NCBI GenBank assembly: GCA_042570545.1
Contig: JBHPGJ010000002.1
Coordinates: 31,741 to 95,740, forward strand
Direction: 5' to 3'
From: Patescibacteria group bacterium
Lineage (GTDB): Bacteria; Patescibacteriota; Patescibacteriia; JBHPGJ01
DNA: 64,000 nt
Part shown: positions 7,968-63,776 of the stretch, piece by piece
How positions within the stretch are numbered: the stretch's first letter is position 1
How the letters are laid out: each line of letters begins with the position of its first letter
Program-made: the position numbers and the translations under genes
The notes under the pieces: model-generated
Seen by the model: the letters and a program-made list of their open reading frames with translations, nothing else
The model's database searches: none
What the model was told of the DNA's origin: nothing

Positions 7968-7971
7968 ATAT

Positions 7972-9096: not shown

Positions 9097-9101
9097 CCAT
9101 T

Positions 9102-12601: not shown

Positions 12602-12678
12602 GGGTGATTAGCTCAGCCGGTTAGAGCGCTATCCTCACACGATAGAGGCCCCTGGTTCAAGTCCAGGATCACCCACCA
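12602..12678 (+). tRNA. tRNA-Val (anticodon CAC) with an encoded CCA.
   Basis: Manual cloverleaf: acceptor GGGTGAT/ATCACCC, D-arm GCTC..GAGC, anticodon stem CTATC/GATAG with loop CTCACAC, T-arm CCTGG-TTCAAGT-CCAGG, discriminator A, CCA. Confidence 0.9.
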
Positions 12679-28309: not shown

Positions 28310-29179
28310 TTGGCTAATTATCAACAATATCAACAATATCGTCTCCAACGCCAATCATCGCGATCACGGAAATGGCGCTGGGTAATAATAATAGCAATAA
28401 TCATCATTTTTATCTGGTGGCTAAGAAATTCGGTCTCAAATGATACTGAAGAAGCTAATGTTAACACGGCTGATAATACAAATGCAGCAGAAGAAGTTAC
28501 TGATGACAATATCAATACCAATAGCACGCCGGATGTTAATCTGGTCAGCAGCTTTGATCTGGATACTTGTACTAGAAGCATATCGCGTGGCAACAGTGAA
28601 GCGGCCAATATCAATTTAACTTTCAATAGCGTCAGCTCAGCCGGCACAACCGATCAGATCTTAGAGATTTTAACTAACAAAGAAATAAAGGCAGATTTCT
28701 TTGTAACTGGCGTTTGGTTAGAGAATAACGGTGAGCTGGGAAAGCAAATATTGGAAAAAGGCCATGGTATCTATAGTCTGGGCTACGAATATGAAAGCTT
28801 TACTACCAAAACTGATGCGGAGGTTCAATCTGACCTAGAGAAAACCGATGATATCTTTAATAGTGCTTTAGAACAGAGTGCCAAGCCTTTTTTCCGACCA
28901 CCGTTCGGATCAATTAATGATGAAATCTTCACGGCGGTAAAACAATATGGCTACTGTCCGATTGTTTGGACCTTTGACTCTCTTGATTGGAGTGCTGATT
29001 TGTCTAGTGAGGAAGTAAAGCAACGAATATTAGAAAAAGCTACCAACGGCGCGATAATAGTAATGCAAACAAGCAATTCAGTTGTACCGGAAATATTGAA
29101 TGAAGTTATTGATAGTTTGAAAGAAAATAGTCTTAATTTTGTATCTTTAATAGAGCTAGTGAATCAAAGAGGGGAATAA
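28310..29179 (+). CDS. Membrane-anchored polysaccharide deacetylase (NodB-type).
   Basis: TM segment 'WVIIIAIIIIFIWW'; NodB-like motifs 'ADFFVTG', 'GHGIYSLGYEYESF' and 'RPPFGSIND'. Confidence 0.65.
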   Translation: MANYQQYQQYRLQRQSSRSRKWRWVIIIAIIIIFIWWLRNSVSNDTEEANVNTADNTNAAEEVTDDNINTNSTPDVNLVSSFDLDTCTRSISRGNSEAANINLTFNSVSSAGTTDQILEILTNKEIKADFFVTGVWLENNGELGKQILEKGHGIYSLGYEYESFTTKTDAEVQSDLEKTDDIFNSALEQSAKPFFRPPFGSINDEIFTAVKQYGYCPIVWTFDSLDWSADLSSEEVKQRILEKATNGAIIVMQTSNSVVPEILNEVIDSLKENSLNFVSLIELVNQRGE

Positions 29180-38672: not shown

Positions 38673-39080
38673 TGGTGGAGATGAGGGGTAATACTCCCCT
38701 GTGTAGATGAGATTCCAAATAGTGTGTACACGCTTATTCACCGTTGGGTATGATTAGCTGAGGCTTAAACGATGACAAAAAACTTCAACTAATATCTTCT
38801 GGTGTCATCCGTTATTCACCGACAGAAGATAATCAGTGAATACTTACCTGATAATTGACACCCATGATAGTCTATCAGGTATTGACTATCTGGATGGTTG
38901 TTACGTTTTAGGCAACAACAGAAGCAAGCTTAGGAGCCGCAAAAGCGTTGGCTAATGTGGTCTTAAACTTACTGAATGTAGATTTGACACTTATCGTTTC
39001 CGGAAGGGATTTACAAGTCATCCGGAAGACTTGACGTGCACTGATTTGAAAAGATCATTCTATCGACTATAAACATCCCC
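38673..39080 (-). ncRNA. ssrA: tmRNA (ssrA), about 408 nt. Candidate tag reading frame encodes ANAFAAPKLASVVA then stop (plus-strand 38908-38952).
   Basis: ORF-free 470-bp gap adjacent to smpB. On the minus strand the 5' end is GGGGATG and the 3' end is ...AGGGG-AGTATTA-CCCCT-CATCTCC-A-CCA. The acceptor stem has the G3:U70 wobble and A73, which are tRNA-Ala identity elements. The 5' region 'GGGGATGTTTATAGTCGATAG' parallels the E. coli tmRNA 5' end. An internal short ORF begins GCC-AAC and ends in UAA. Confidence 0.8.
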
Positions 39081-39117: not shown

Positions 39118-39594
39118 CTATGTTTTTTGTCTAAGTACCCTTCTGATTTTGCGATCAGTGTCTCGTTTCTTTATTTCTTCTCGGCGATCCCGTTTTTTCT
39201 TACCGGTCACTAAAGCGACCTCGATTTTTACGAGACCGCCCTTAGTATAAACAGTTATTGGTATCATTGTCAAGCCAGGGGTTTTGGTCTTACCGATAAG
39301 AGTTTTTATCTCAGATTTGTTTAATAATAGGCGACGATCACGATCAGCTTGGTAATCAACTTGCCTGCCCTTGGCAAAGCGATAGGGGGCAATACGGGAC
39401 TGTTTGAGCCAGGCTTGTTCATTATCTATGCTAATATAAGCACCCTTGAGATCAATATCTCCTAATTTAGCGCTTTTTACCTCAGCCCCAGTTAAAGCAA
39501 TACCGGCCTCATATATTTCGAGGATTTTGAATTGGGCTTTGGCTTTTCTATTGTTAGCTAATTGTGGCACGACATAAGTATACTTTTGTTTCAC
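39118..39594 (-). CDS. smpB: SsrA-binding protein SmpB.
   Basis: 'AYISIDNEQAWLKQSRIAPY...LLLNKSEI' and the basic C-terminal tail are typical of SmpB. Confidence 0.9.
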   Translation of the reverse strand: MKQKYTYVVPQLANNRKAKAQFKILEIYEAGIALTGAEVKSAKLGDIDLKGAYISIDNEQAWLKQSRIAPYRFAKGRQVDYQADRDRRLLLNKSEIKTLIGKTKTPGLTMIPITVYTKGGLVKIEVALVTGKKKRDRREEIKKRDTDRKIRRVLRQKT

Positions 39595-48100: not shown

Positions 48101-50012
<1,912 letters not shown>

Positions 50013-50117
50013 GTTGACAGACCGATTATTACGTGAGAAATTGAGGGCAGTACACAACACTGAACTCTTTTTCTGAATTTACTGCCAGTTCGTTGGCAAC
50101 CTAAGGGGGAATCAAAA

Positions 50118-50306
50118 ATGAAGCACCTGAAAGATACCAACGACAAACCGGTCAAGGGACGGGAGATGATCGCCAATTGCGGACAGAAAGGGACTTACAT
50201 CGGTCCAATGACCGCCCACGGCGACGACAAGGACACCTGCAATGACTGCGTAGCTATTCATTGGCGTGAGCCGATGCACATGGAGGTGGTAGTCTTCGAG
50301 ACCTAG
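50118..50306 (+). CDS. Small (62 aa) Cys/His-containing hypothetical protein in a short GC-rich islet.
   Basis: Strong RBS AAGGGGG 7 nt upstream; followed by a terminator. Local GC is about 52%, against about 40% in the flanks. Confidence 0.5.
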   Translation: MKHLKDTNDKPVKGREMIANCGQKGTYIGPMTAHGDDKDTCNDCVAIHWREPMHMEVVVFET

Positions 50307-50330
50307 CCGGTCGATCTTTTTGGATTATGG

Positions 50331-50365
50331 CCCGCTTGTTCAGGATCAAGCGGGTTTTATTTTAT
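50331..50365 (+). terminator. Rho-independent terminator.
   Basis: CCCGCTTG (50331-50338) ... CAAGCGGG (50347-50354), followed by TTTTATTTTAT. Confidence 0.65.
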
Positions 50366-50388
50366 CTAAAATAATGTAAACTAAATTT

Positions 50389-50826
50389 ATGGATAAAAAA
50401 ATCGAAGTTACTGCCACCGCCCTGCTTAGAAAAAAAGATAATAATATTTTTTTGCACCAGAGTCCAAAATGGCAAGACAAGTGGGTAGCACCAGGTGGCC
50501 GTTTAAATTATGGAGAAACAATAGTAGCCGGAGTAAAACGAGAAACCAAAGAAGAAACAGGGTATGAAATAAATCCATTAAGTATTGTTAATGTGATCGG
50601 CAGTATTAATCCTCCAAAATATAATCGTCCCGCCCACTTTATACATATACATTTTTTATGTGAATTAATTGGTGGTAATTACCGACCAGATAAGAAAGAA
50701 GTTATAAATGGCCGCTGGTTTTCAATTGAAGATGCACTAGAAATTACCGACGGATCAATGAGAAAAAGCATATTAAATCTAAAAGAGGGCAAATACCTGG
50801 ATATAGTAGATTTGGATAGTATATAG
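50389..50826 (+). CDS. NUDIX hydrolase.
   Basis: Nudix box 'GGRLNYGETIVAGVKRETKEETGYE'. Confidence 0.8.
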   Translation: MDKKIEVTATALLRKKDNNIFLHQSPKWQDKWVAPGGRLNYGETIVAGVKRETKEETGYEINPLSIVNVIGSINPPKYNRPAHFIHIHFLCELIGGNYRPDKKEVINGRWFSIEDALEITDGSMRKSILNLKEGKYLDIVDLDSI

Positions 50827-50944
50827 CCCAAATAATCTGATATATCACGACCGGCTATTGATAAAATGGCGGCTTTGTGGTGGTAAGGTTTCAACTATTA
50901 ATAATTCATTTTGACCGGTATTAATGGTATAATGTTAAAAACTA

Positions 50945-51340
50945 TTGACTATTATGAGCCAAAATATATTTGTCAAATCTTCAACTTTTATCTTCCGTGA
51001 ATTAATTTTTGATGTGGTCCGTTTTCCCTGGTGGTGGTATACCCGCGGTACTATGAACGCTGCTTTTTTTATAAGTCGGGAAATGTCTGATTGGGCCAAT
51101 CGGTTGAGTTTACGTATCTTACTGCGCAATATGTTTAAGCCCATGTATGGTGATTATACCCGCAGTGGCCGGGCCATCAGCTTTTTTATCAGGGTGATAA
51201 TGTTTTTCGTAAAATCAATTGTCTTTGTACTCTGGTCAGTTTTATTGATCGCCCTATTATTGTTATGGCTACTTGTACCGCTGGCGATTATTTATATGAT
51301 TTATTTGAACATTACCGGTGATAAAATAATCGGAACCTAA
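50945..51340 (+). CDS. Hypothetical membrane protein, overlapping and probably co-transcribed with the downstream Clp-like ATPase.
   Basis: C-terminal hydrophobic helices 'IVFVLWSVLLIALLLLWLLVPLAIIYMIYL'; its stop overlaps the start of the next ORF. Confidence 0.5.
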   Translation: MTIMSQNIFVKSSTFIFRELIFDVVRFPWWWYTRGTMNAAFFISREMSDWANRLSLRILLRNMFKPMYGDYTRSGRAISFFIRVIMFFVKSIVFVLWSVLLIALLLLWLLVPLAIIYMIYLNITGDKIIGT

Positions 51341-51341
51341 A

Positions 51342-54110
51342 ATGGCAGAAGAAGAAATACTACCAGATCTGTTACTACTTGAATGCAATACCTGCAAAGG
51401 TCGGGGCCGCTTAGCCGAGGACAAACAGACAAAAGCGTGTCCCAGTTGTCATGGTCTTGGATTAGCCGCCTGGCTTGATGGACAGTTCTGGCACTGGGGT
51501 AAAACATTTTCCATCCTGCGCATATTAAGCGACCGGGCCGAGCAGCTGGGCCGGGCGGTTATAAATGGCATCTTAATGGCCTTGGCACTGGTCGGGTTTG
51601 CCAGCGGGGTCTGGCAATTTTATCAGCGCTGGCAGGTTGATACTGACGTAGTCGGCTGGCTAAACACTCGCAATACCGGCATGATATTATTTTGGATCGG
51701 TTTGCTTATCGGTTTATATATTTTCTTTCGTTTAGAGCGTGAGCGGTCATCACACCCGGTTATAAAACGCAAAAGTATTGGTAATTTATTAATCCCGCCA
51801 CCGGCTGGATTGACTTATGATGATTACCAAAAAAATAAATTACAGTCACTTGAAATATCTCAGTATCTTGACTGGCAGGCCAAACAATCAGTTGAGAAGG
51901 CCTGGCTACTGGCTCATCGTCTTGATCACCCACAGGTAGAACCAATTCATTTATTGGCCTCACTTTATGATGCTCCGCGGGTTAAAGTTATCATGGCCCG
52001 CTTAGGTGTTGATTCGAGCAAGTTAGTACAAAAAATAAAAAGACGTTTTAGTGAACTGCCAAAAATAAAGGGTGGCGAACCCATTGTGTCCGCTAATGTG
52101 CTGGAGCTTTATTATCAGGCTTTTGCTTTTGCTTATAAAGAAAGGAATCCAGTGATTGATGCTCCAGATCTTTTTCTAGCTGTCACTAAGGTAGAGGCTG
52201 TGGCCAAAGAGATCTTATATGATATGGAGGTTGATGAAAATAAACTGACAAATGTCGTCAAGTGGGTAGATTTGCAGCAGCGTGTAAGCAAACAGTGGCA
52301 ACGTTTTCGGTCCCGAGCGGCTCGCAAACCCAAAGGTGCCATGGATCGGGCCATGCTAGCCCAGGCCACTCCCGTACTTGATCATTATAGTCGCGATTTG
52401 ACCCAGTTGGCCAGGATTGGCGGTTTACCCCTGACCATTGGTCGTGATGATGAAGTGGAAGAGATATTTAGAGTATTAGAGAGTGGCCGCGGTAATGCCT
52501 TAATCGTCGGTGCCGCTGGAGTCGGCAAGGATATGTTGCTTAACGCCATTGCCGACCGGATGGCTTCGGAAGAAGTTCCCGAGAGCCTACAAGATAAAAG
52601 GTTTGTATCACTTAATATTTCTTCACTAGTAGCCGGCGCTGGTGCAGTCGGGGAGCTGGAAGAAAGACTGCATGAACTGCTGGATGAGGTGGTGAGATCG
52701 GGCAATATAATAATAGCAATAGAGAATCTCCACACCATGGTCGGTGTTTCTTCAGCTGGTGGACAAAGCATGGACTTGTCCGAGGTCCTGGCCCAGGCTA
52801 TTGCTACCAATAAGATAATTGTTGTCGGTACATCGACACCAAATGAATTTCGAAAGTATATCGAACCGCGTGGCAGTCTGATGACGCACTTTCAACCGAT
52901 AAGGATCAATGAGGTCGATGAAAATACTTCCATTCTGATATGTGAAACTAAAGTCGGCCCGATAGAATATCATCACCGAGTATTTTTTGCTTATGAAGCG
53001 ATAGAAAGATCGGTCAAATTAGCTAAACGTTATTTGACCGAATTAATGCTGCCAACTTCAGCCATCAATTTAATGGAGGAAGTAGCGGTAATGGTGAAAA
53101 AGACGAAAGGGGTCAATAGCTTTGTAACCGGTGAAGATGTGGCTCAGTTGGTATCACAGCGGGCAAATGTATCCGTCACAAAAATAACTGAGGACGAGAC
53201 GGAAAAACTGCTTAATCTAGAAAATATAATTCACCAGCGTTTAATCGACCAGAATGAGGCTGTCAATGCTGTTGCCTCGGCGCTACGCCGGGCCCGAGCC
53301 GAGCTAAGAGATACCAAAAGGCCAATAGCTAATTTACTGTTCTTAGGTCCAACCGGAGTGGGTAAGACCCAACTGGCTAAAACAGTCGCTGACGTATATT
53401 TTGGTTCCGAAGAAAACATGATCCGTCTGGACATGTCGGAATATCAAGACCAATATTCTATCTACCGGTTGATCGGCACTCCCGAAGGAGCCGGTGGCGG
53501 TTACCTGACCGAAGCCGTCAGACGTAATCCATTTTCACTGGTGCTGCTGGATGAAATTGAAAAAGCCCACCCCGATGTTTTAAACGTATTTTTACAAGTT
53601 ATGGACGATGGTCGTTTGACTGATTCATCAGGACGGACAATAGATTTTACCAACGTTATATTGGTTGCTACCTCAAATGCAGCTACACCAATTATTCAAG
53701 CCCGAGTTAGTGAGGGTGTTGATGTTCAGCATATTAAAGATGAAATGATGACTGGCGGTCTGGCCAAATATTTCCGGCCAGAATTTCTTAACCGTTTTGA
53801 TAACATAGTTGTCTTCAAACCACTCAGCCTAAGCGATATATTTGCAATTGCCAAATTGCTGCTTAAGGACGTAGAGAAACGACTGCAGAAAAAGGGCATT
53901 ATACTTGAGGCGACCGATGGGGCAATAGCTGAGCTGGCCAAAGCCGGTTATGACCCCATTTATGGTGCTCGACCATTACGGCGGGTGATCCAAGAGAGGG
54001 TTGATGATGCGTTAGCTAAACATTTACTTCAGGGCAAGATCGGTCGACGCGATATTGCTGTATTAGAAACCGGTGGTCGGATTACGGTCAAACAAGCCAA
54101 GGAATTATAA
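51342..54110 (+). CDS. Membrane-anchored ClpC/ClpB-like AAA+ protein with an N-terminal CxxC zinc ribbon, two TM helices, Clp_N repeats, a degenerate D1 and a canonical D2.
   Basis: N-terminus 'CNTCKGRGR...CPSCHG'; TM helices around residues 75-125. D1 Walker A reads 'GAAGVGKD' and Walker B 'IIIAIENLHT', both non-canonical. D2 reads 'GPTGVGKT', 'LVLLDEIEKAHPDV' and 'RPEFLNRFD'. Confidence 0.8.
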   Translation: MAEEEILPDLLLLECNTCKGRGRLAEDKQTKACPSCHGLGLAAWLDGQFWHWGKTFSILRILSDRAEQLGRAVINGILMALALVGFASGVWQFYQRWQVDTDVVGWLNTRNTGMILFWIGLLIGLYIFFRLERERSSHPVIKRKSIGNLLIPPPAGLTYDDYQKNKLQSLEISQYLDWQAKQSVEKAWLLAHRLDHPQVEPIHLLASLYDAPRVKVIMARLGVDSSKLVQKIKRRFSELPKIKGGEPIVSANVLELYYQAFAFAYKERNPVIDAPDLFLAVTKVEAVAKEILYDMEVDENKLTNVVKWVDLQQRVSKQWQRFRSRAARKPKGAMDRAMLAQATPVLDHYSRDLTQLARIGGLPLTIGRDDEVEEIFRVLESGRGNALIVGAAGVGKDMLLNAIADRMASEEVPESLQDKRFVSLNISSLVAGAGAVGELEERLHELLDEVVRSGNIIIAIENLHTMVGVSSAGGQSMDLSEVLAQAIATNKIIVVGTSTPNEFRKYIEPRGSLMTHFQPIRINEVDENTSILICETKVGPIEYHHRVFFAYEAIERSVKLAKRYLTELMLPTSAINLMEEVAVMVKKTKGVNSFVTGEDVAQLVSQRANVSVTKITEDETEKLLNLENIIHQRLIDQNEAVNAVASALRRARAELRDTKRPIANLLFLGPTGVGKTQLAKTVADVYFGSEENMIRLDMSEYQDQYSIYRLIGTPEGAGGGYLTEAVRRNPFSLVLLDEIEKAHPDVLNVFLQVMDDGRLTDSSGRTIDFTNVILVATSNAATPIIQARVSEGVDVQHIKDEMMTGGLAKYFRPEFLNRFDNIVVFKPLSLSDIFAIAKLLLKDVEKRLQKKGIILEATDGAIAELAKAGYDPIYGARPLRRVIQERVDDALAKHLLQGKIGRRDIAVLETGGRITVKQAKEL

Positions 54111-54162: not shown

Positions 54163-54708
54163 TCAGGTCAGCTTTTTCAGCTTGTCTACGCCGGCGGCGA
54201 TCTCAGCGTCGGTTTTGTCTGGCTTGACGAAGAATTCTTCGTGCTGACCAATCTTAACACCTTTGACTTGGCCAGCCGCCCCCGGCTCCTTGAGCATGGC
54301 CTCCTTATCGACCGTTTTCTTGACTCGGATGAAGCGGGTAAGACGTTTTTCCCGGAGCTGTTTCAGGACAGCGTCAACATTGCGGAGGGTTACCGCCGGA
54401 GGTGTTAAACGCCAGCCGAAAGTGCCAACCGGCAGATCAACCGATTTCTTCTTATCGCTATCGGTAAGCTCAGTACGGTTGGCTTGAGCAAAAGCAAACA
54501 AACCAGTCACCAGATCGTCGATCCGCCTTTGCCGCACTTGCACTTTTTCGGCCGCCTCTTCTTTCAACCGGTCCAGTCTGGAGTTGAGTCGGGTGTTGAC
54601 CGCATCAATAGCACGTTGTTCGACGGCAATGTCGGCGATAAATTTGGCGGCGGCGGCTAGATCCTGCGGTACAGCAACTACTGATCTTTTCAGCGTTTTC
54701 TTAGTCAT
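54163..54708 (-). CDS. Bacteriophage Mu Gam-like DNA-end-binding / host-nuclease inhibitor protein.
   Basis: 'AQANRTELTDSDKKKSVDLPVGTFGWRLTPPAVTLRNVDAVLKQLREKRLTRFIRVKKTVDKEAMLKEP' closely parallels the Mu Gam core '...ANRDELT...SWRVRPPSVSIRGMDAVMETLERLGLQRFIRTKQEINKEAILLEP', which is recalled from memory. RBS AAGGGGG is present. Local GC is about 55%. Confidence 0.75.
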   Translation of the reverse strand: MTKKTLKRSVVAVPQDLAAAAKFIADIAVEQRAIDAVNTRLNSRLDRLKEEAAEKVQVRQRRIDDLVTGLFAFAQANRTELTDSDKKKSVDLPVGTFGWRLTPPAVTLRNVDAVLKQLREKRLTRFIRVKKTVDKEAMLKEPGAAGQVKGVKIGQHEEFFVKPDKTDAEIAAGVDKLKKLT

Positions 54709-54921: not shown

Positions 54922-55119
54922 ATGTACGATATGCCCCACCGTACCTGTGTAGGCTGCGGACACATCAGGCCGGCTTCCAGTCCTGACACCTTCCATTGTT
55001 TACTGATAACTGCCGGCTCCAATTGTGTGTTCGGCAAAGACAAAGACGTCGCCACTGCGGAACTCAGTCAGATCAAACCGGGTAACCGTGTCGACCGAAG
55101 CGAAGCCACCAATGGCTAG
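54922..55119 (+). CDS. Small (65 aa) Cys-rich hypothetical protein, possibly a zinc-ribbon; divergent from the Gam-like gene.
   Basis: Perfect SD GAGGAGG 7 nt upstream of the ATG; 'CVGCGH...HCLLITAGSNC'; followed by a terminator. Confidence 0.45.
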   Translation: MYDMPHRTCVGCGHIRPASSPDTFHCLLITAGSNCVFGKDKDVATAELSQIKPGNRVDRSEATNG

Positions 55120-55132
55120 CACGATCATTATG

Positions 55133-55170
55133 ACCATGCTGTGACATCTCGCAGCATGGTTTATCTTATT
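55133..55170 (+). terminator. Rho-independent terminator.
   Basis: ACCATGCTG (55133-55141) ... CAGCATGGT (55152-55160), followed by TTATCTTATT. Confidence 0.6.
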
Positions 55171-55220
55171 GCCAAACAATAAAAAATAGCTATACTAAGC
55201 ACATAAAAATCATACGTTTT

Positions 55221-56024
55221 GTGGCTCAGGAGTATAAAAATAATAATTTGAAAATTGTAATACTAACTTCATACAAACACATATATGCTGATATAGTAAT
55301 TAGGAAATTGTTTTCAGCGCTTCCTGATCATCAGTATCTAATTATTTATCAGAAAGCTTTAGTAGCCGGTAAATCTAAGATAAGTGGGCTGCAATATTAT
55401 TGGCGAAAGAGTGGTGCCAGATATGTGATGGCTCAAGTAATTAAGCAATTAATTATTTTATTATTCTATCGATTTTTAAAGCCTGATAAAAACATTCAGA
55501 CAGAAATTTGGGAAAACCATAAACTGGATGATATTGAAAAAATAATTAGTGATTATCAGCCCGATGTAATCTTATCAATTTATTCAAAGTATAAATTATC
55601 TGACAACATTCTGTCAGCGGCCAGCAAGTACTCAATAAATATTCATCCGTCGCTATTGCCGGCTTATAAAGGCGTCAGTCCCACGTTTTGGGTTCTGGCA
55701 AACGACGAAAAAGAGACCGGAGTATCTATCCATAAATTAACCAAATCTTTTGATGAAGGAAGTATAGTTGCTCAGAAGAATATTTACATAGATAAAAATG
55801 ATAGCGAGCATAGTTTATACCTAAAATGTTCTATGCTGGGATCTGGTTTGGTGATCGATACATTAAATATTATAAATACCAACCAGCCGCTTACTAAACT
55901 GTCAGAAAATAAATCGTCATCATACTTTTCTCTACCTGATCGATCAGCAGTTCGGAAGTTTAAAAATAATGGGCGGTCGTTTTTTAAATTATCAGAGTTG
56001 TCAAAAAAACCTGTACTTAACTAA
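55221..56024 (+). CDS. Formyltransferase (Fmt / ArnA N-terminal-domain-like).
   Basis: 'INIHPSLLPAYKGVSPTFWVLANDEKETGVSIHKLTKSFDEGSIV' is the formyl-transferase active-site region. Confidence 0.8.
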   Translation: MAQEYKNNNLKIVILTSYKHIYADIVIRKLFSALPDHQYLIIYQKALVAGKSKISGLQYYWRKSGARYVMAQVIKQLIILLFYRFLKPDKNIQTEIWENHKLDDIEKIISDYQPDVILSIYSKYKLSDNILSAASKYSINIHPSLLPAYKGVSPTFWVLANDEKETGVSIHKLTKSFDEGSIVAQKNIYIDKNDSEHSLYLKCSMLGSGLVIDTLNIINTNQPLTKLSENKSSSYFSLPDRSAVRKFKNNGRSFFKLSELSKKPVLN

Positions 56025-56045
56025 TATTATGTATATAATATAACC

Positions 56046-56798
56046 ATGTCAGCTGAATACGAAAAAGATTTCAGCCTAATATTGCCTATATATAATGAGG
56101 GCATAAAATTATCAAAAAACTTAGATAATATATCGCGTACTCTTGGTATTGCTGGTATTAATTATGAAATAATACTAATTGACGATGCCAGTCAGGACGA
56201 TAGTGCTCAGCGGGCAAAGAATTTTGCTCAGTCTAATGATAGGGTGGTTTTTTATCAGCATGAAAAAAATATGGGTCGCGGTCGGACGGTCATGGATGGT
56301 TTTTCTAAAGCCAAGGGACAAATAATAAGTTTTATTGATGTCGATTGTGAGGTGTCGCCAATATATTTGTTAGAATTTGTGAATGATATGCTTAATAATA
56401 ATAAAGTTGATGTAATAACCGGCCGCCGGATTTATACATTCTCAATAAGTAAAATGCTCCGACCGTTATTTAGCATGATTTATCGAGTGTTGATACGGGT
56501 GATGCTGGGAGTAAAACTGCTAGATACGGAAACGGGTTATAAATTATTTCGTAATTCTTCCTATCAAAGTATAGCTTCATTTTTAAAAAATAACGACTGG
56601 TTCTGGGATACTGAGGTGATGACAGTCTCGGCATTAGCTGGTCTTAAGATACAAGAGAGAAATGTATTATTTGTCAGAGATCATGACAAAAAATCATCAG
56701 TTCGTCTGATCCCGGATATTATAAAGTACTTAAAAGCCATGATGAAATTTCGACGTACTATTCCGCAATTAAAGAGGGATCTGAAAAATAATGGATAA
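56046..56798 (+). CDS. GT2 polyprenyl-phosphate sugar transferase (ArnC/DPM1-like).
   Basis: 'LSLILPIYNEGIKL...EIILIDDASQDDS' is a GT2 signature. Confidence 0.8.
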   Translation: MSAEYEKDFSLILPIYNEGIKLSKNLDNISRTLGIAGINYEIILIDDASQDDSAQRAKNFAQSNDRVVFYQHEKNMGRGRTVMDGFSKAKGQIISFIDVDCEVSPIYLLEFVNDMLNNNKVDVITGRRIYTFSISKMLRPLFSMIYRVLIRVMLGVKLLDTETGYKLFRNSSYQSIASFLKNNDWFWDTEVMTVSALAGLKIQERNVLFVRDHDKKSSVRLIPDIIKYLKAMMKFRRTIPQLKRDLKNNG

Positions 56799-57966
56799 AC
56801 TGAAAAATTTTATACCCTTTGGCGCTCCCAAATTTGACAAGCATACCGAACAGGAGGTCATAAAAACTTTACGCAGTGGCTGGATCGGTACCGGACCGCA
56901 AACAGAAAAGTTTGAAAAGAAAATTGCCGAGTATCTGGGTGTAGAAAACGCAGTGGCCGTATCATCATGTACGGCTGGTCTGCATTTGAGTTTATTGGTT
57001 TCGGGGATCAAGCAGGGTGATGAAGTAATAACCAGTCCTATGACCTATATTGCCACCGCCAGCGCCATTATGCAGGCTGGTGCCAAAGTAAAATTTGCGG
57101 ATATTGATTTAGCCACTTATAATATTAAATCTGATGAAATCGGAAAAAATATAAGCAAAAAGACAAAAATAATCCTGCCGGTTCATTTTGGCGGCTTACC
57201 GGCTGATCTAGCAGCAATCAAAAAGATTATCGGACGAAAGAAAATAAAAATCATTGAAGACGCAGCTCATGCTATTGGTGCCCGGTATGATGGTAAAAAA
57301 ATCGGTAAAAGTGATAATTTAGTCTGTTTTAGTTTCTACCCAAATAAAAATATCACCAGTTGCGAAGGGGGAATAATAGCAGTACCTGATAAGAAGTTGG
57401 CTGATAAAATACGCGTACTAAGCACGCACGGATTAGACGCCGATGCCTGGAAACGATATCATCGCCGTTCTTTGCGGGTTAGCCTGGCGGTAATGCCTGG
57501 ATATAAATATAATCTGACCGATTTAAATTCCACCATTGGCTTGCAACAGCTAAAAAAAGTCGAGAAATGGCAGCGGCTGAGAGAAAATTATGCAAAGATT
57601 TATGATAAATTTTTTAGTGATATTCCCGGCGTTTATATACAGAAAAGACCCAAGAATATCAGACGCAATCGGCACTCATTGCACCTGTACAGTTTAAGGT
57701 TGGATGAAGAAGTATTTAAACATGGTACCAGGGATAGGGTAGTCAAAAAATTATTAGCTAAAAATATTGGTGCCAGCGTTCATTACTATGCCATACATCT
57801 ACATCCGTTATTTCGCAAATTAGGTTATAAAAAAGGAGATTTTCCAATCGCTGAAAAAGTAAGCCAAGAGATTTTTTCCCTGCCGTTGACCCCCCATCTG
57901 ACTACTAATGTTATCAGAACCATTGCCGGCATTACTAAAGAAACGATAAAGAATAACCTTTCATAA
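56791..57966 (+). CDS. DegT/DnrJ/EryC1/StrS-family PLP-dependent sugar aminotransferase (ArnB-like).
   Basis: 'FGAPKFDKHTEQEVIKTLRSGWIGTGPQTEKFEKKIAEYLGVENAVAVSSCTAGLHL' is the family N-terminus; an active-site Lys region is present. Confidence 0.85.
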   Translation: MDKLKNFIPFGAPKFDKHTEQEVIKTLRSGWIGTGPQTEKFEKKIAEYLGVENAVAVSSCTAGLHLSLLVSGIKQGDEVITSPMTYIATASAIMQAGAKVKFADIDLATYNIKSDEIGKNISKKTKIILPVHFGGLPADLAAIKKIIGRKKIKIIEDAAHAIGARYDGKKIGKSDNLVCFSFYPNKNITSCEGGIIAVPDKKLADKIRVLSTHGLDADAWKRYHRRSLRVSLAVMPGYKYNLTDLNSTIGLQQLKKVEKWQRLRENYAKIYDKFFSDIPGVYIQKRPKNIRRNRHSLHLYSLRLDEEVFKHGTRDRVVKKLLAKNIGASVHYYAIHLHPLFRKLGYKKGDFPIAEKVSQEIFSLPLTPHLTTNVIRTIAGITKETIKNNLS

Positions 57967-57970
57967 TTTA

Positions 57971-58711
57971 GTGGATCAATCTACACATAATACAGTTAGA
58001 CGTGAGGGTACCAAACACTGGTGGTTTGTCGGACGTAAACAAATTTTTGCCAAATTATTAAAAAATTATCTTCCCAAATCGAATCTTAATATACTTGATC
58101 TCGGCTGCGGATCGGGCAATATGTATTCGGTATTAAGTAAATATGGAAAACTGACAGGGGTCGATAATAGCGGGGAAGTGCTGGCCTACGCCCAAAAAAT
58201 TGGTTACGAAAAAATTGTCAAAGCCAACGCCCTTGATCTTCCGTTAAATAATAATGAATATGATTTGGTAGTCGCTGTTGATCTGATTGAACATATCGAC
58301 GATGAAAATAAATTTATAAATGAGATATTTCGGGTGATGAAACCCGGTGGCTACTTATTTATTACCACCGCTGCCTTTGATTCTCTGTGGAGCCGATTAG
58401 ATGAGCTGTCTCATCATAAGCGTCGCTATACCAAGGTCTCGTTAATGAAAAGTTTAAGCCGGCCGGGCTGGCAATTGGAAAAAATAAGATATTATAATGT
58501 ATTTCTTTTTTGGCCCATAGTGATAAAACGCATGATTGATAAGATGTTATCAAACAAATCAAATGACGCCAGTGATTTGTATGATCTAAGAACACCGCCG
58601 GCCATAATTAATAATCTTTTGGAAAATATTTTAATCAGCGAAAAGTATTTTATCGGTATCCCGTTCCCAGCCGGTGTATCGTTAATGGCAATAGTTAAAA
58701 AAAATGGATAA
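57971..58711 (+). CDS. Class I SAM-dependent methyltransferase.
   Basis: 'ILDLGCGSGNM' motif I; 'VVAVDLIEH' motif II. Confidence 0.7.
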   Translation: MDQSTHNTVRREGTKHWWFVGRKQIFAKLLKNYLPKSNLNILDLGCGSGNMYSVLSKYGKLTGVDNSGEVLAYAQKIGYEKIVKANALDLPLNNNEYDLVVAVDLIEHIDDENKFINEIFRVMKPGGYLFITTAAFDSLWSRLDELSHHKRRYTKVSLMKSLSRPGWQLEKIRYYNVFLFWPIVIKRMIDKMLSNKSNDASDLYDLRTPPAIINNLLENILISEKYFIGIPFPAGVSLMAIVKKNG

Positions 58712-59333
58712 AAAACTGGCCCTAAACAATTTAAAACTAATATATTCTGGTAAATCAAATTTATATATTCAGCTGCGGACTAGATTATTTTGGTCACGAT
58801 TTGAGAAGTTAGTTAATTTATTACCAGACCAGGGCCGTCTTGTCGATATCGGCTGTGGCCAAGGGCTATTGTTGAATTTAATATCAGTATATCGACCCAG
58901 TCTGACATTAGTTGGCGTTGACACGGACAGTGAGCGTATCAGTGAAGCAGAGAAAACCATAAATGGCCGAACAAATATTAAGTTTTATAACTCTGACGCC
59001 AGAGAATTTAACTTTCAAACAGGTGATAATATTCTTTTTGTGGATTCACTCCATCACATACCGTATAACGATCATCGGCCACTACTGCAAAGACTGGCAC
59101 AGCAAGTTAAGCACGAGGGTAGATTGATAATATCTGAAGTTGAAAAAAACCCCCGCTGGAAATACGCGCTGTCTTATTTGAGTGATACACTACTGTATCC
59201 TAGTAGTACCAGGTGTCAGTTTTATAGTGTTACAGAAATGATGGCCTTGCTCAAAAGCACAGGCTGGAACGACCAAAGCATAACCAAGGTTCATAATATA
59301 TTTCCAACAGTGATTTATGAATGCCAAACTTAG
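58704..59333 (+). CDS. Class I SAM-dependent methyltransferase.
   Basis: 'LVDIGCGQGLLL' motif I. Confidence 0.7.
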   Translation: MDKKLALNNLKLIYSGKSNLYIQLRTRLFWSRFEKLVNLLPDQGRLVDIGCGQGLLLNLISVYRPSLTLVGVDTDSERISEAEKTINGRTNIKFYNSDAREFNFQTGDNILFVDSLHHIPYNDHRPLLQRLAQQVKHEGRLIISEVEKNPRWKYALSYLSDTLLYPSSTRCQFYSVTEMMALLKSTGWNDQSITKVHNIFPTVIYECQT

Positions 59334-60849
59334 TCTAATACCCAAAAGTTGGAGCCGGCGTACGGTCATGATCATAATGGTCTTGGTTGTTCTTGTTTTA
59401 CTTTTTTATCAATTAGATATATATCCACTTGCCGGGCCCCAAACTGATGAACATTTTTACCTTAGGTTTGCTAATGAGAGAATAAATAATTATAACTTTC
59501 CGGGATCATTAAAATATTTCACATCAGTATCGCCACAGCTGCCGATGACTGAACTGTATCTTATAATTACTTCAGGGTATTTGAAAATTGCCGGACTAAA
59601 CTTTGTAGCCGCAAGATCTTTTTCAATTATCTTTACGCTGGCCACCTTAATAATATTGTGGTTATTGGCAGCGGCGATCGGCAAACGGTCGGTTGTTTTT
59701 TTTACGTTCATGAGTTTGATATCGACGACCTACTTTTGGAAAATATCAAGAGAATTCATTCCTCACGTGGTCGTGATGTTTGCCATCTTTGGGTCGGTAT
59801 ATTTTTTATATAAATGGCGGCAGAGTAATAAGTCATATTTTTATTATATTAGTTTGCTTTTAGCAATTCTGGCACCATTCATTTCTTACTGGGCCCTATT
59901 TTTTATACTACTATTTCCTTGGTTAGTATACCAAAGAACAAAAAAATTAACTTTTTGGTTAAGTTGGTTGCCCATCAGCCTATTATTTTTATATTGGTCG
60001 ATTAAATATTATGCACTGGGAGAAATATTCTTAATGGATTTATATGAATTATTTAATTGGCAGCAAACTGGTGGCTTATTAGGTGATTCTGATCTATTAA
60101 ATCAATTTATTTACGGTCTAAAAAAATTCGTGTTTTTTTTGGGCAGCAATTTTACATTGTTACCCGGATTATTAGGCTTACTATTAATTAAAGATCGGTG
60201 GCTTAGAAACAGCTTGCTGGCCATTGTTATTATTGGCGGTGTGTTTATTTTCCGCACCCGAGATTATATATTTAGTCAATACTTAACAATAATTCTTATA
60301 CCATTTCTGGCGCTGGGCGCTGGAGTGATATTGGCAGGACTTTTCAGCTGGCTTAAAAAGATGTTAAATAATCTTAAGATAAATATTTTATTTTATTATT
60401 TAATACTAGCATCATTTATTATGATAATGTTAGTTGGAACAATTTTCAGGTACGTAGATATTCAGCAGATAAGAAATGAGACAGTTAATTACTATCATAA
60501 AATTTATGATACAAGTGATTTTGTCAATAGCATGATCACTCCAATGGATTATATTATCGCCCCGTCCGAGATATATTGGCGTATTCATTCAGATGCTATG
60601 GTCGAGTCGGGTGTATACGCCAGAGAATTTGGTCGTATTAATGATAATTTTAGAGCGAATTATCGGACCGAAGATAAATACTTTAATTGGGACACAGATG
60701 TAGCTAATGCCAAATTCGTAGTACGGCGATCGCCAAAAATGTTAAAGTATAATCATATGGATGATTATATAGTAGAGCAGACTACTGATTGGCCTTTAGT
60801 ATTTTCCAATGATTACTACTTAGTGTATAAGAACGAAGCTATTGATTAA
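59317..60849 (+). CDS. GT-C fold membrane glycosyltransferase (ArnT/PMT, GT83/GT39-like).
   Basis: At least 10 predicted TM helices; a first-loop 'DE' motif 'GPQTDEHFYLRFA'; a large C-terminal soluble domain. Confidence 0.7.
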   Translation: MNAKLSLIPKSWSRRTVMIIMVLVVLVLLFYQLDIYPLAGPQTDEHFYLRFANERINNYNFPGSLKYFTSVSPQLPMTELYLIITSGYLKIAGLNFVAARSFSIIFTLATLIILWLLAAAIGKRSVVFFTFMSLISTTYFWKISREFIPHVVVMFAIFGSVYFLYKWRQSNKSYFYYISLLLAILAPFISYWALFFILLFPWLVYQRTKKLTFWLSWLPISLLFLYWSIKYYALGEIFLMDLYELFNWQQTGGLLGDSDLLNQFIYGLKKFVFFLGSNFTLLPGLLGLLLIKDRWLRNSLLAIVIIGGVFIFRTRDYIFSQYLTIILIPFLALGAGVILAGLFSWLKKMLNNLKINILFYYLILASFIMIMLVGTIFRYVDIQQIRNETVNYYHKIYDTSDFVNSMITPMDYIIAPSEIYWRIHSDAMVESGVYAREFGRINDNFRANYRTEDKYFNWDTDVANAKFVVRRSPKMLKYNHMDDYIVEQTTDWPLVFSNDYYLVYKNEAID

Positions 60850-60852
60850 CCA

Positions 60853-62349
60853 ATGAAAAAATTGATTTTTAACCGGTCAAATCTAATATTTATCGCTATT
60901 TTTATTATTGCTGCTGCTCTCCGATTAGTTTACCTCAGCGATACACCTCCTTGGTATACCGACGAAGGATTTTATCTGAATGTTTCCTGGGAAATAATTC
61001 ACGGAAATTATGAGATAATGGGTGTCGGCGACTGGACCTTTATCTCGCCCTACTTTACTACACCGCCGTTGTACTTATATATTATTGGATTGCTTAGTGT
61101 GGTGTTTGGCAAGACATTGTTAGTAACCAGATTGTTCTCAGTGGTAATCGGATTGGCAACCATTTTTTCTTTGTATGTGATCGGCAAAAAAATATTTTCA
61201 CCCAAACACGGTTTATTAATAGCAGCCGTATATGCACTGCTGCCTGAATTTATTTTAAATAACCGTTGGGCTTTCCCTCACGGTCTGGCCGGTTTATTGG
61301 TGCTATGGTGGATATATTTATTTTGGCGGTATCTGCAAAATAATGAACAAAAATATCTACTTTGTTCAATATTATTATTAGCCACTGCCAACCTGGTGAC
61401 CTATTGGACTTGGCCGCTGTTTATAGTGATGCCTTTTATATTGTGGCGCCGAATAAGAATTAAATCCATATTTTATAGTTTACTTAGTTTGCTGCCATTG
61501 CTGCTGTTGATCAGCTGGCGCTTGGCGGTCATACCGGAGATCTTTATAAGCGATTTACGAAGCTTAGTAAGCGGTGATGTTGTTCTGGATCCACATCCTT
61601 CAATCTTAATTGGTTTTATAAAATTTTATACCATGGATGTTTTGTTTTTTCTGTCGTTTATCGGACTGTTTTTAATTAAAGATAAAGTATTAAAGTGGCT
61701 AATCTTATCGGTCTATCTAATGACCAGTCTGCCGATATTAATTTATCGATGGAATCCAGTAGATCATTTTTATCCAAATCTTATATTTACGCCGGTTTTA
61801 CTGATTGGAGTGGGCGCGATATTTTTGCGGTTAGGCGATACTAAGAAAATATTTAATATTAAAATCACGAAAATATTATTACCGTTATTGATAGCTTATC
61901 TGTCGATCTGGACACTGATCAGTGGCGCTATGCTGGCTGACAAATCTCTAGCTAGGATAATTTCCGACCGGCCTTTTATCGTCGCCCAATCAGTGGGGGA
62001 AATGAAAGAGGTAGCGTCATATATTAATAACAGATCAAGTTCGGAAGACTATGTAATTGCTCCCAACAATCTCAATTGGCAATTAAAGGCCAGAACCACG
62101 ACCTTAGTATGGACAGCCTGTTATGAAAATATGGATGATTTTAATTTTATCTGGCCGGAAAGATATAGTTGGCAGCCATCAATTGCCGAGGCGAAATATT
62201 ACGTACATGATCGGTATTTTGGCGGTGATGCCAGTGTGTGCAAGCCGTATCGACAAGAAATAATCGATACTATGGTTGAGCAAAATTGGTCGGTAGTATA
62301 TAGTACCGAGCGCTTTGATGTTCATGCTAATCCACAACTAGCCGAATAA
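60853..62349 (+). CDS. GT-C fold membrane glycosyltransferase; a paralog of 59317-60849.
   Basis: Polytopic; 'PPWYTDEGFYLNVSWEI' is the DE-loop; C-terminal soluble domain. Confidence 0.7.
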   Translation: MKKLIFNRSNLIFIAIFIIAAALRLVYLSDTPPWYTDEGFYLNVSWEIIHGNYEIMGVGDWTFISPYFTTPPLYLYIIGLLSVVFGKTLLVTRLFSVVIGLATIFSLYVIGKKIFSPKHGLLIAAVYALLPEFILNNRWAFPHGLAGLLVLWWIYLFWRYLQNNEQKYLLCSILLLATANLVTYWTWPLFIVMPFILWRRIRIKSIFYSLLSLLPLLLLISWRLAVIPEIFISDLRSLVSGDVVLDPHPSILIGFIKFYTMDVLFFLSFIGLFLIKDKVLKWLILSVYLMTSLPILIYRWNPVDHFYPNLIFTPVLLIGVGAIFLRLGDTKKIFNIKITKILLPLLIAYLSIWTLISGAMLADKSLARIISDRPFIVAQSVGEMKEVASYINNRSSSEDYVIAPNNLNWQLKARTTTLVWTACYENMDDFNFIWPERYSWQPSIAEAKYYVHDRYFGGDASVCKPYRQEIIDTMVEQNWSVVYSTERFDVHANPQLAE

Positions 62350-62417: not shown

Positions 62418-63776
62418 TTGCTTATTCAAATCAGCAGCCATAGCATGACAAACCAAAATAATTTAATGGAAGATATCATCTCGCTAGCCAAACGGCGGGG
62501 TTTTATTTTTCAGTCATCGGAAATGTACGGTGGCTTGGGTGGTTTTTATGATTACGGCCCGCTGGGGGTTGAACTAAAAAGAAAAGTAGAAAGCCAGTGG
62601 TGGAAAATATTCGTGGAAGAACGGGAAGACGTGGTTGGCCTGGCCAGCTCAATAATAATGAATCCTAAGGTCTGGGAAGCCAGCGGTCATCTTGAGCATT
62701 TTTCTGACCCCTTGGTAGAATGCAAAAAATGTCATCAACGATTCCGGGCTGATCAAGAAGCGGAAATCAAAGAACATCAGCACCAGGAATTTACCGAACC
62801 GCGGTCTTTTAATACTTTGTTTAAGACTTATGTTGGACCGACCGAGGATGATGCCAATGTGGCTTACTTACGGCCGGAAACTGCCCAAGGTATGTTCGTA
62901 AACTTTGAAAACGTCCTTAATTCTACCCGAGCCACTGTGCCTTTTGGTATTGCGCAGATTGGTAAATCGTTCCGCAACGAAATAACTTACCGGAATTTTA
63001 TTTTTCGCGTGCGTGAATTTGATATTGCCGAAGTCGAGTACTTTGTAAAACCCGGTGAGGACGACCAGGCCTTTGCTGACTGGTTGAAATTTATGGAGCG
63101 GGCATTGACTGAGGGCTTTGGATTAGATAAGAAAAAATTAAAACATTTTGAGCATCCTAAGGAGAAACTAGCTCATTATAGCAAACAGACTATTGATATC
63201 ATGTATCAGTACCCCTGGGGCTGGGATGAATTATGGGGCCTGGCCAACCGGACTGATTATGATCTAAAACAGCATGAAAAATTTTCGGGGCAAAAATTAG
63301 CTTATCGTGATCCAAAATCCGGCGAAACCTATACGCCTTATGTTATTGAGCCGACCGGGGGTATAGACCGCTTATTGCTGGCCATATTAGCGGAATCTTA
63401 CTCCAAGGTAAAAGGCGGTCGTACTACCACCACTAAAGCAACCAAGGATGAAGAAGTAGTACTAAAATTACCAAAAAATCTTGCCCCATTTCAGGTGGCC
63501 GTATTGCCGTTAACCAAAAAAGAAAGTGTAACCAAAGTGGCTCGCCAAATTTATGATGAATTACGGCTGAAGCTGGCTATTGATTATGATGAAGTTGCCT
63601 CGGTAGGCCGCCGCTATCGGCGTCAGGATGAAATTGGTACACCTTATTGCGTGACTATAGATTTTGACTCACTAGATGATAAGCAGGTAACTATTCGTGA
63701 CCGGGATACAATGAAACAGGATCGGATACCGATTGATAATTTGGCCGACGAGCTAACTAGGAGATTAGCTGACTAA
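62418..63776 (+). CDS. glyQS: Glycyl-tRNA synthetase, alpha2 (GlyQS) type.
   Basis: 'RRGFIFQSSEMYGGLGGFYDYGPLGVELK' is typical of class II GlyRS; the anticodon-binding C-terminus is also typical. Confidence 0.9.
   Translation: MLIQISSHSMTNQNNLMEDIISLAKRRGFIFQSSEMYGGLGGFYDYGPLGVELKRKVESQWWKIFVEEREDVVGLASSIIMNPKVWEASGHLEHFSDPLVECKKCHQRFRADQEAEIKEHQHQEFTEPRSFNTLFKTYVGPTEDDANVAYLRPETAQGMFVNFENVLNSTRATVPFGIAQIGKSFRNEITYRNFIFRVREFDIAEVEYFVKPGEDDQAFADWLKFMERALTEGFGLDKKKLKHFEHPKEKLAHYSKQTIDIMYQYPWGWDELWGLANRTDYDLKQHEKFSGQKLAYRDPKSGETYTPYVIEPTGGIDRLLLAILAESYSKVKGGRTTTTKATKDEEVVLKLPKNLAPFQVAVLPLTKKESVTKVARQIYDELRLKLAIDYDEVASVGRRYRRQDEIGTPYCVTIDFDSLDDKQVTIRDRDTMKQDRIPIDNLADELTRRLAD

Follow-up and report, generated by a model that had tools for sequence, protein, structure and literature searches.

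Here, we describe seven consecutive genes in a 64,000-nucleotide stretch (the window) of a Patescibacteria group bacterium genome (assembly GCA_042570545.1, the 105-kb contig JBHPGJ010000002.1, positions 31,741 to 95,740 of the forward strand), and we read them as a single operon for lipid-carrier-dependent extracytoplasmic glycosylation with a modified 4-amino sugar, a reading to which we give a probability of roughly 0.65. An earlier sequence-only reading, made without database searches, had placed seven same-strand genes at 55221-62349; we confirmed seven plus-strand open reading frames (ORFs) at identical coordinates. The families it had proposed for them all hold by Pfam, with the qualification that ORF6 stays below the PMT_2 cutoff and is recognized as a GT-C glycosyltransferase by its structural model. 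The seven genes are the following.

55221..56024, plus strand: ORF1, formyltransferase-like, 267 amino acids (aa) as listed, probably 258 aa from a TTG start at 55248
56046..56798, plus strand: ORF2, short family 2 glycosyltransferase (GT2), 250 aa
56791..57966, plus strand: ORF3, DegT-family pyridoxal phosphate (PLP) aminotransferase
57971..58711, plus strand: ORF4 (MT1), class I S-adenosylmethionine (SAM) methyltransferase
58704..59333, plus strand: ORF5 (MT2), class I SAM methyltransferase
59317..60849, plus strand: ORF6, GT-C membrane glycosyltransferase, 510 aa
60853..62349, plus strand: ORF7, GT-C membrane glycosyltransferase, paralog of ORF6, 498 aa

The intergenic distances from ORF1 to ORF7 are 21, -8, 4, -8, -17 and 3 bp, i.e. 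an operon-like packing, and each of the seven proteins has its catalytic motifs intact. We observed directly the family memberships, these motifs, the packing, the GT-C folds and a gene linkage that is conserved in other loci. A lipid-linked mechanism is favoured because of the packing and the lower GC of the block, the intact motifs, the similarities of the individual enzymes, the linkage across loci and the precedents set by ArnC and by the three-component systems, in which a GT2 and a GT-C glycosylate glycans and proteins (PMC11127046, PMC12041528).

The order of the steps, the amination at C4, the lipid carrier and the methylation of the sugar are what we infer. A nucleoside diphosphate (NDP)-4-keto sugar would come from an enzyme whose gene lies outside the operon, elsewhere in the genome, ORF3 would aminate it to an NDP-4-amino sugar, and ORF1 would N-formylate the amine using N10-formyl-tetrahydrofolate. 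As in the Arn pathway, formylation may draw an unfavourable transamination forward and make a substrate that the next enzyme accepts; ArnC accepts only the formylated uridine diphosphate (UDP)-4-formamido-4-deoxy-L-arabinose (Ara4FN) (PMC12690121). ORF2 would then move the sugar onto polyprenyl phosphate, another protein would flip the lipid-linked sugar, and ORF6 and ORF7 would pass it on, at the outer membrane face, to one acceptor or to two. The two methyltransferases, which are soluble, would methylate the sugar, most probably while it is still attached to the nucleotide. Elsewhere in the window, a DAGK_prokar kinase at 24629-25000 (+) may be an undecaprenol kinase and, as such, a possible source of the lipid carrier.

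The aminotransferase ORF3 matches DegT_DnrJ_EryC1 (PF01041) with 387.5 bits (positions 4-356 of 360) and carries the PLP Schiff-base lysine K186 within SFYPNKNIT, features that point to a DegT/DnrJ/EryC1 aminotransferase of NDP sugars. Against the Protein Data Bank (PDB), four ArnB sequences lead with 227-250 bits, followed by the next family at 209 and by PseC-type enzymes at about 147. Neither of the outcomes that the sequence-only reading had named as fatal to the pathway (a non-sugar aminotransferase, or GT-C proteins of a PMT type with no amino-sugar genes present) appeared, and ORF3 groups firmly with sugar aminotransferases, ArnB first. Among the NCBIfam models, ArnB (NF008658; 320.8 bits, cutoff 631) and PseC (317.5 bits, cutoff 423.5) are nearly tied, and six orthologs of ORF3 likewise remain under every cutoff with ArnB and PseC tied. 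These scores place ORF3 in an unnamed aminotransferase subfamily between ArnB and PseC, and its closest homologs (55-62% identity) come from loci that share the soluble core.

The formyltransferase ORF1 matches Formyl_trans_N with 82.8 bits, has no Formyl_trans_C domain and contains the catalytic residues N140, H142 (N140-x-H142) and D178, which are conserved across its family; the HPSLLP motif already seen in the letters spans residues 142-147. Its closest solved relatives are tied, with 74.1 bits for a GDP-perosamine N-formyltransferase (WbkC-type) and 73.8 bits for the N-domain of ArnA, and Met-tRNA formyltransferases align with about 40% of the query only. The fold, the Asn-His-Asp triad and the missing Fmt C-terminal domain argue for a sugar N-formyltransferase of the ArnA-N, WbkC, VioF and WlaRD type. 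Among the NCBIfam models ArnA gives the best E-value, with 106 bits against a cutoff of 777 and a match confined to model positions 68-199 of 649. ORF1 belongs to a small and distinct family of about 270 aa with about 17 full-length homologs at 27-41% identity, marked by an N-terminal insertion of its own and a C-terminal SYFS.P motif. Its true start is probably TTG 55248 rather than GTG 55221, because the family aligns from M.IVILT, NCBI models the protein with 258 aa and there is an AGGAG at 55229.

For ORF2, Pfam returns Glycos_transf_2 with 95.8 bits, and the motif D98-x-D100 is present. A PDB search with the single sequence found ArnC, dolichyl-phosphate mannose synthase (DPMS) and GtrB first, weakly. 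With a family profile built from nine orthologs, GtrB reached 77.4, DPMS 72.7 and ArnC 70.5-72.3 bits against at most 60 for all other GT2 structures, and the top seven distinct PDB sequences were all polyprenyl-phosphate GT2s. The profile alignment extends to position 181 of 246 and spans the juxtamembrane helix region of GtrB, with which an arginine-rich amphipathic segment of ORF2 aligns. The DXD motif, the alignment over the helix region and the closer similarity than to other GT2s support membership in the GtrB/DPMS/ArnC subgroup. The best NCBIfam match is PgfS with 73.1 bits, far under its cutoff of 500. The ArnC equivalog NF007986 scores 53.4 bits (cutoff 529), and there is a weak match to the PpgS model (29.8 bits, cutoff 370), which represents an enzyme lacking transmembrane (TM) helices. 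The known architecture of ArnC includes two TM helices (PMC12690121); because helices of the ArnC/GtrB type are lacking in ORF2, its association with the membrane is only presumed. ORF2 may thus be a peripheral membrane GT2 of the polyprenyl-phosphate subgroup that resembles the TM-less enzymes PpgS and Ppm1/D2 (PMC3485146).

The methyltransferases ORF4 and ORF5 match Methyltransf_11 (79.9 bits) and Methyltransf_23 (57.9 bits), respectively, with the SAM loops DLGCGSG and DIGCGQG.

As the sequence-only reading had proposed, the two membrane proteins are paralogs, with 24% identity over their full length (E = 2e-22), and the acidic pair that it had noticed in the first loop is present after the first TM helix as D44-E45 in ORF6 (TDE at 43) and as D37-E38 in ORF7 (TDE at 36), in the latter inside the invariant motif WYTDE.FY.N. 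ORF7 exceeds the PMT_2 cutoff of 26.1 bits with 47.2 bits and ORF6 stays below it with 20.4 bits. The AlphaFold models (predicted TM-score 0.81 for ORF7 and 0.79 for ORF6) both indicate a GT-C fold of class A, with a small extracytoplasmic alpha/beta domain at the C-terminus of ORF6 and a C-terminal extracytoplasmic domain in ORF7. In Foldseek, the models matched ArnT, PglB and STT3 with E = 1e-6 to 1e-8 and a probability of 1.00, which supports the class A assignment. For ORF6, ArnT (GT83; 5f15/5ezm) came top with a TM-score of 0.61-0.63 by query and 0.59-0.60 by target, compared with 0.48-0.53 by query and 0.37-0.42 by target for oligosaccharyltransferase (OST)/PglB; for ORF7, STT3, PglB and ArnT were about equal (E ~1e-7). 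These relatives emerge through fold comparison only, as PDB sequence and family-profile searches with both GT-Cs gave no match, ArnT and the solved protein O-mannosyltransferases (PMTs) included. The marks of the GT39 PMTs are missing: neither protein has a PMT or MIR match in Pfam, only the broad PMT_2, and the fold similarity to Pmt1, Pmt2 and Pmt4 is weak (TM-score 0.30-0.49 by query). The NCBI name of ORF7, 'glycosyltransferase family 39 protein', is due to its PMT_2 match.

Is this combination of genes a recurrent module? Orthologs of ORF2 (260-274 bits), MT1 (227-261 bits) and MT2 (174-188 bits) are found together in three related loci, L001, L041 and L042. In L001, the order is MT1, a hexapeptide acyltransferase, MT2, GT2 and aminotransferase, followed by three GT-Cs of the ORF6/ORF7 type; ORF6 has two orthologs in this locus (226 and 185 bits), which also holds two further membrane proteins, of which one matches GT87 weakly. 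L041 and L042 (L042 belongs to a Candidatus Kerfeldbacteria genome) share the order hexapeptide, GT2, aminotransferase and MT2, with MT1 copies further on in L041 and flanking both sides in L042. There the core lies amid 5-7 GT-C-like genes (PMT_2, GT87, MptA_B family, DUF2079 and unassigned membrane proteins of 500-550 aa), accompanied by up to three short GT2s and by three methyltransferases (L041 3479-18987, L042 3519-21197); in appearance, the two loci are assembly lines for an extracytoplasmic glycan and recall the lipoglycan synthesis of mycobacteria. L048 has the order GT2, hexapeptide, aminotransferase and methyltransferase, the last being of MT2 size and adjoining the aminotransferase, and L043 and L047 hold the same aminotransferase subfamily (52-53% identity) beside a GNAT acetyltransferase. 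In all seven loci examined for this subfamily, the window included, an acyl-type transferase stands next to the aminotransferase (hexapeptide in four, GNAT in two, and formyl in the window only). Our first reading took the hexapeptide protein as a direct N-acetylating substitute for the formyltransferase and was downgraded after NCBIfam placed these proteins near WcaF; that the shared position also means a shared N-acylation role is plausible but unproven. B12-binding radical SAM genes also accompany this aminotransferase subfamily (L043 5021-7853 and 14073-15455; L048 1681-3030 and 8891-10363), in L048 paired with proteins of about 910 aa that have no Pfam match, and may act on the sugar by C-methylation or by some other radical chemistry.

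The formyltransferase family leads to a different set of loci, of which we examined three on long contigs (L044, L045 and L046). L044 and L045 show the order formyltransferase, GT2 and aminotransferase as in the window and continue with YfhO-type GT-C genes, and L046 contains the same parts rearranged, together with PMT_2, DUF2142, PTPS_related and YfhO-type GT-C genes; thus, a GT-C gene of YfhO or PMT_2 type is adjacent in each. The gene directly upstream of the formyltransferase in L044 is a dTDP-glucose 4,6-dehydratase (RmlB) that passes the equivalog cutoff (387.6 against 365.1 bits), L045 has its own RmlB further upstream (375.2 against 365.1), and the L044 aminotransferase exceeds the WecE cutoff (427.6 against 375). 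RmlB and a WecE-type aminotransferase would indicate a lipid-linked 4-formamido-4,6-dideoxyhexose made as a dTDP sugar rather than 4-amino-4-deoxy-L-arabinose (Ara4N). The two predicted 4-formamido-4,6-dideoxyhexose loci (L044 8795-15141, L045 898-15685) were not found described in the literature that we searched. A short-chain dehydrogenase/reductase (SDR) resembling the ArnA C-domain was sought in the related loci; the SDR of L042 is weakly GalE/RmlD-like and those of L044 and L045 are RmlB, and none supports Ara4N.

Compared with both sets, the GT2 and aminotransferase of the window score 260-274 and 504-551 bits against the Kerfeldbacteria-type core, but only 151-161 and 160-179 bits against the formyltransferase-type loci. 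Because of this closer relationship, the operon appears to be a mosaic of two module families, i.e. a Kerfeldbacteria-like core of GT2, aminotransferase and two methyltransferases joined to a formyltransferase from a separate family of formyltransferase-GT2-aminotransferase modules.

Several observations weigh against the proposed lipid-linked pathway. Among the coding-strand ORFs of at least 120 aa that were scanned across the 64 kb, we found no SDR, UDP-glucuronic acid (UDP-GlcA) decarboxylase, dehydrogenase or Ugd that could make the 4-keto sugar, no flippase of the small multidrug resistance (SMR; ArnE/F), GtrA, MATE or Wzx type, and no deformylase linked to the operon. The sequence-only reading had called the cluster the enzyme set needed for the pathway, which is overstated, as the NDP-4-keto-sugar enzyme and the flippase are not in the window, and the only carbohydrate esterase family 4 (CE4) polysaccharide deacetylase there, a possible ArnD-like enzyme at 28310-29179 (+), is unlinked and 27 kb away from the operon. 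None of the seven proteins reaches an NCBIfam equivalog cutoff. ORF2 lacks the two C-terminal TM helices of ArnC and GtrB, its hydropathy showing a single weak segment. Against the PDB, MT1 and MT2 gave generic class I matches only, with no signal for a sugar N- or O-methyltransferase. The hexapeptide proteins of the related loci are nearest to WcaF-type O-acetyltransferases (NCBIfam, 77-85 bits, under the cutoff of 192), so that the acyl position is perhaps not a conserved N-acylation step. ORF6 and ORF7 orthologs stand alongside the core in L001 only. The ORF7 family is small: at E <= 1e-30, a search of 1.84 billion representatives yielded 144 representative clusters, of which about 11 are close, and outside the candidate phyla radiation (CPR) its members are mainly orphan genes in Anaerolineae (Chloroflexota). 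Our locus scans for this family used a four-sequence alignment, an eight-sequence one being too divergent; the genome scan returned distant homologs only, nearly all from Chloroflexota, and the metagenome scan added four loci. The Chloroflexota relatives have neither amino-sugar neighbours nor a conserved neighbour family, and hence give no clue to the acceptor.

How closely does the operon follow the Arn pathway? CPR bacteria are not known to have lipid A, and the patescibacterial source fits the earlier assumption of a lineage that lacks it. Four enzyme types of the Arn pathway are gathered in one operon (a DegT aminotransferase, an N-formyltransferase, a GT2 of the ArnC/GtrB/DPMS subgroup and GT-Cs of ArnT-like fold), with the implied logic of formylating the amine and then loading the sugar onto polyprenyl phosphate, and the Arn-like order of the chemistry gains support from these similarities and from the recurrence of the formyltransferase-GT2-aminotransferase trio in other loci. 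The Arn-like label of the sequence-only reading therefore stands as a resemblance and fails as a membership, since no Arn equivalog cutoff is reached and L044 and L045 indicate a dTDP-4-amino-4,6-dideoxyhexose instead of Ara4N. A true Arn pathway would make undecaprenyl-phosphate-linked L-Ara4FN or L-Ara4N and transfer Ara4N to an anionic envelope lipid or glycolipid, thereby lowering the surface charge, with Ugd, a UDP-GlcA decarboxylase, ArnD and ArnE/F encoded elsewhere, and this we consider improbable. ArnB is indeed the best solved relative of the aminotransferase, no NCBIfam model fits the formyltransferase with a better E-value than ArnA, the top relatives of the GT2 include ArnC, and ArnT is the best fold match of ORF6. 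However, the scores fall far below the equivalog cutoffs (ArnB 320.8 against 631, ArnC 53.4 against 529, ArnA 106 against 777), ArnB and PseC are level for the window protein as well as for the six orthologs, the scanned ORFs of the 64 kb include no SDR, and the SDRs of the formyltransferase-GT2-aminotransferase loci are RmlB and not of the ArnA C-domain type. Further differences are the missing ArnA C-terminal decarboxylase, Ugd and ArnE/F in the window, a GT2 without the two TM helices of ArnC, GT-Cs without detectable sequence similarity to ArnT, the presence of two GT-Cs, two added and conserved methyltransferases that have no Arn counterpart, a host that is not known to have lipid A, and related loci that point to a dTDP-6-deoxyhexose and not to a UDP-pentose. 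From these comparisons, we consider the operon Arn-like in outline but probably not a member of the Arn pathway. It could also be that no lipid coupling takes place, in that ORF1, ORF3, ORF4 and ORF5 make a modified NDP sugar for cytoplasmic glycosyltransferases, ORF2 works on a growing glycan as an ordinary GT2, and an unrelated donor serves the GT-Cs. The missing TM helices of ORF2, the lack of a flippase and the other GT4 and GT2 glycosyltransferases elsewhere in the window would agree with this; we nevertheless hold it to be improbable, as the GT2 profile ranks polyprenyl-phosphate GT2s first (70-77 against at most 60 bits), TM-less GT2s of this kind exist (PpgS, Ppm1/D2; PMC3485146), and the GT2 lies beside or very near the aminotransferase in L001, L041, L042, L044, L045, L046 and L048, with a GT-C-type gene nearby in those six of the seven in which one was recognizable.

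Given a lipid-linked sugar, there are three candidate classes of acceptor: a wall glycopolymer or lipoglycan, a protein, or a membrane lipid. We regard it as possible, at somewhat unfavourable odds, that ORF6 and ORF7 sequentially add the lipid-linked amino sugar to a wall polysaccharide or membrane-anchored lipoglycan, a proposal that is a variant of the lipid-linked reading naming its acceptor and that rests on an analogy with the mycobacterial GT-Cs of lipomannan and lipoarabinomannan and with PpgS and Rv3779. In its favour are the 5-7 GT-C-like genes and up to three short GT2s around the L041 and L042 core, the three ORF6/ORF7-type GT-Cs and two more membrane proteins of L001, and the PpgS precedent together with the weak PpgS match of ORF2 (29.8 bits). 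PpgS (Rv3631) is a short TM-less GT2 for a polyprenyl-phosphate amino-sugar donor, and the GT-C Rv3779 adds galactosamine to cell-wall arabinogalactan in a bacterium without lipopolysaccharide (PMC3485146). The MptA/MptB/PimE lipoglycan enzymes offer a further likeness, as the related CPR loci hold GT87 and MptA_B-family genes. In contrast to PpgS/Rv3779, however, the window GT2 matches PpgS weakly, a small membrane partner like Rv3632 was not seen and the sugar would be formylated instead of acetylated. The window also holds two GT-Cs only, no recognizable polymer synthase, exporter or ligase adjoins the operon, and the lineage has no known glycan chemistry. The sequence-only reading had taken the two GT-C paralogs as a sign of two acceptor specificities; the 5-7 GT-C genes of the related CPR loci fit a stepwise glycan assembly at least as well. 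[quoted passage not shown] It would be in keeping with PgfS as the best NCBIfam match of the GT2 (73.1 against a cutoff of 500, i.e. far below), with the Pfam assignment of ORF7 to PMT_2, with the streptococcal GT2 and GT-C pairs that modify Ser/Thr-rich regions (PMC12041528), and with the large surface proteins encoded in the window, one of them with 27% Ser+Thr. The streptococcal PgfS/PgfM1/PgfM2 and GtrB/PgtC2 systems further resemble the operon in having a GT2 and two GT-Cs per operon and a cell without an outer membrane. But no genetic link connects the operon to any candidate acceptor, ORF6 and ORF7 have neither MIR domains nor detectable sequence similarity to solved PMTs, their PMT fold matches are far weaker than those to ArnT and OST, and PgfM and PgtC2 are YfhO-type proteins with a length of about 800 aa, as against the PMT_2/ArnT fold and the roughly 500 aa of ORF6 and ORF7. 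Moreover, the Pgf sugar is GalNAc/GlcNAc from an epimerase, in contrast to the aminated and formylated sugar predicted for the window (PMC12041528). More generally, GtrA/GtrB/Gtr*, CsbB/GtcA/YfhO and the GT136 pentofuranose systems share with the operon the pairing of a polyprenyl-phosphate GT2 with an outer-face GT-C (PMC11127046); they differ in that the operon has no recognizable flippase gene, that its GT-C family is uncharacterised, and that it would tailor its donor by amination, formylation and methylation where those systems use a common UDP-hexose.

The window encodes two candidate surface proteins of giant size: a 2100-aa protein at 15974-22276 (+) with an N-terminal T4SS-pilin-like domain, several TM helices and Big_5 repeats, and a 1585-aa protein at 71-4828 (+) with 27% Ser+Thr and no Pfam match. 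Three consecutive secreted or membrane-anchored proteins at 7113-10385 (+) carry dockerin, cohesin and bacterial Ig-like domains; one would not expect a CPR genome to encode such a cohesin-dockerin pair, which is cellulosome-like.

At its 5' side, the operon is preceded by two features.

55132-55161, plus strand: terminator-like hairpin with a 13-bp stem, from a consensus scan and sequence inspection
55169-55196, plus strand: sigma-70-like promoter match (TTGCCA, 16 nt, TATACT), from a consensus scan only

Promoter-like matches are not enriched in this region over shuffled sequence, which makes the promoter call weak; the succession of hairpin and promoter match at 55132..55196 likely forms the operon boundary. 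At the 3' side, the glycyl-tRNA synthetase gene starts 68 bp after the operon. The GC content of the operon block is 36.6%, compared with 43.1% and 43.6% in the flanking housekeeping genes (48909-54110 and 62418-63776). Directly upstream lies a lone phage Mu Gam-like gene (54163-54708 (-), PF07352, 116 bits), and a 65-aa cysteine-containing ORF at 54923-55120 (+) sits between it and the strong hairpin. The Gam-like gene, the hairpin and the low GC of the operon suggest an acquired or rearranged region. In L041 and L042, the orthologous core occupies another chromosomal position, after RuvC-YebC-PGI; taken with the low GC, this suggests that the operon was transferred horizontally or assembled as a mosaic. 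Further upstream, a 922-aa ClpB/ClpC-like AAA+ protein (51342-54110 (+)) has no Pfam match over its first ~190 residues, which contain CxxC...CxxC motifs and hydrophobic helices, and may represent a variant of Clp that is membrane-anchored or has a zinc ribbon. Next to each other lie a tmRNA gene (Rfam, 72.8 bits) and smpB (38673-39080 (-) and 39118-39594 (-)), and tRNA-Val and tRNA-Asp genes lie at 12602 and 37035.

What does the operon add to present knowledge? The three-component scheme of GT2 and GT-C is already well described (PMC11127046), and CPR genome papers list many dolichol-phosphate-mannosyltransferase-like genes and amino-sugar pathways at the level of annotation (PMC4736985). 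Our finding is a gene-cluster prediction of a familiar type, with no new principle. Our literature searches on ArnT, Ara4N and GT-Cs in CPR and on the pairing of formyltransferase with YfhO found nothing relevant and no description of the module. New, it appears, are the specific module, in which a TM-less GT2 and an ArnB/PseC-like aminotransferase are combined with two methyltransferases and with an acyl or formyl step that varies, the association of this module with a GT-C family of ArnT fold that is uncharacterised, and the formyltransferase-GT2-aminotransferase trios outside lipid A biology.

In summary, the loci define uncharacterised formyltransferase and GT-C families, and they suggest that the Arn-style logic of formylating first and then loading onto a lipid may operate outside lipid A modification, paired with at least two GT-C families. 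We speculate, tentatively and against the odds, that CPR and some other lineages share an undescribed envelope modification, in which a 4-formamido, methylated deoxy-amino sugar on polyprenyl phosphate is installed outside the cell by a new GT-C family of ArnT fold; the acyl step would come in exchangeable forms (formyl, hexapeptide-acetyl or GNAT-acetyl), the GT-C partner would be variable (PMT_2-like or YfhO-like), and the formyl group would be retained on the surface, because no deformylase is linked to the operon. The module of aminotransferase, acyl or formyl transferase, TM-less polyprenyl-phosphate GT2, two methyltransferases and GT-Cs is compact and testable, and its reconstitution could identify a surface sugar of CPR bacteria. 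Hardly any experimental knowledge exists of the envelope chemistry in CPR/Patescibacteria, whose cells rely on physical contact with a host. If the prediction is true, a surface glycan of this kind could, on an episymbiotic cell that depends on its host, control how the host is attached to or how phages recognize the cell.

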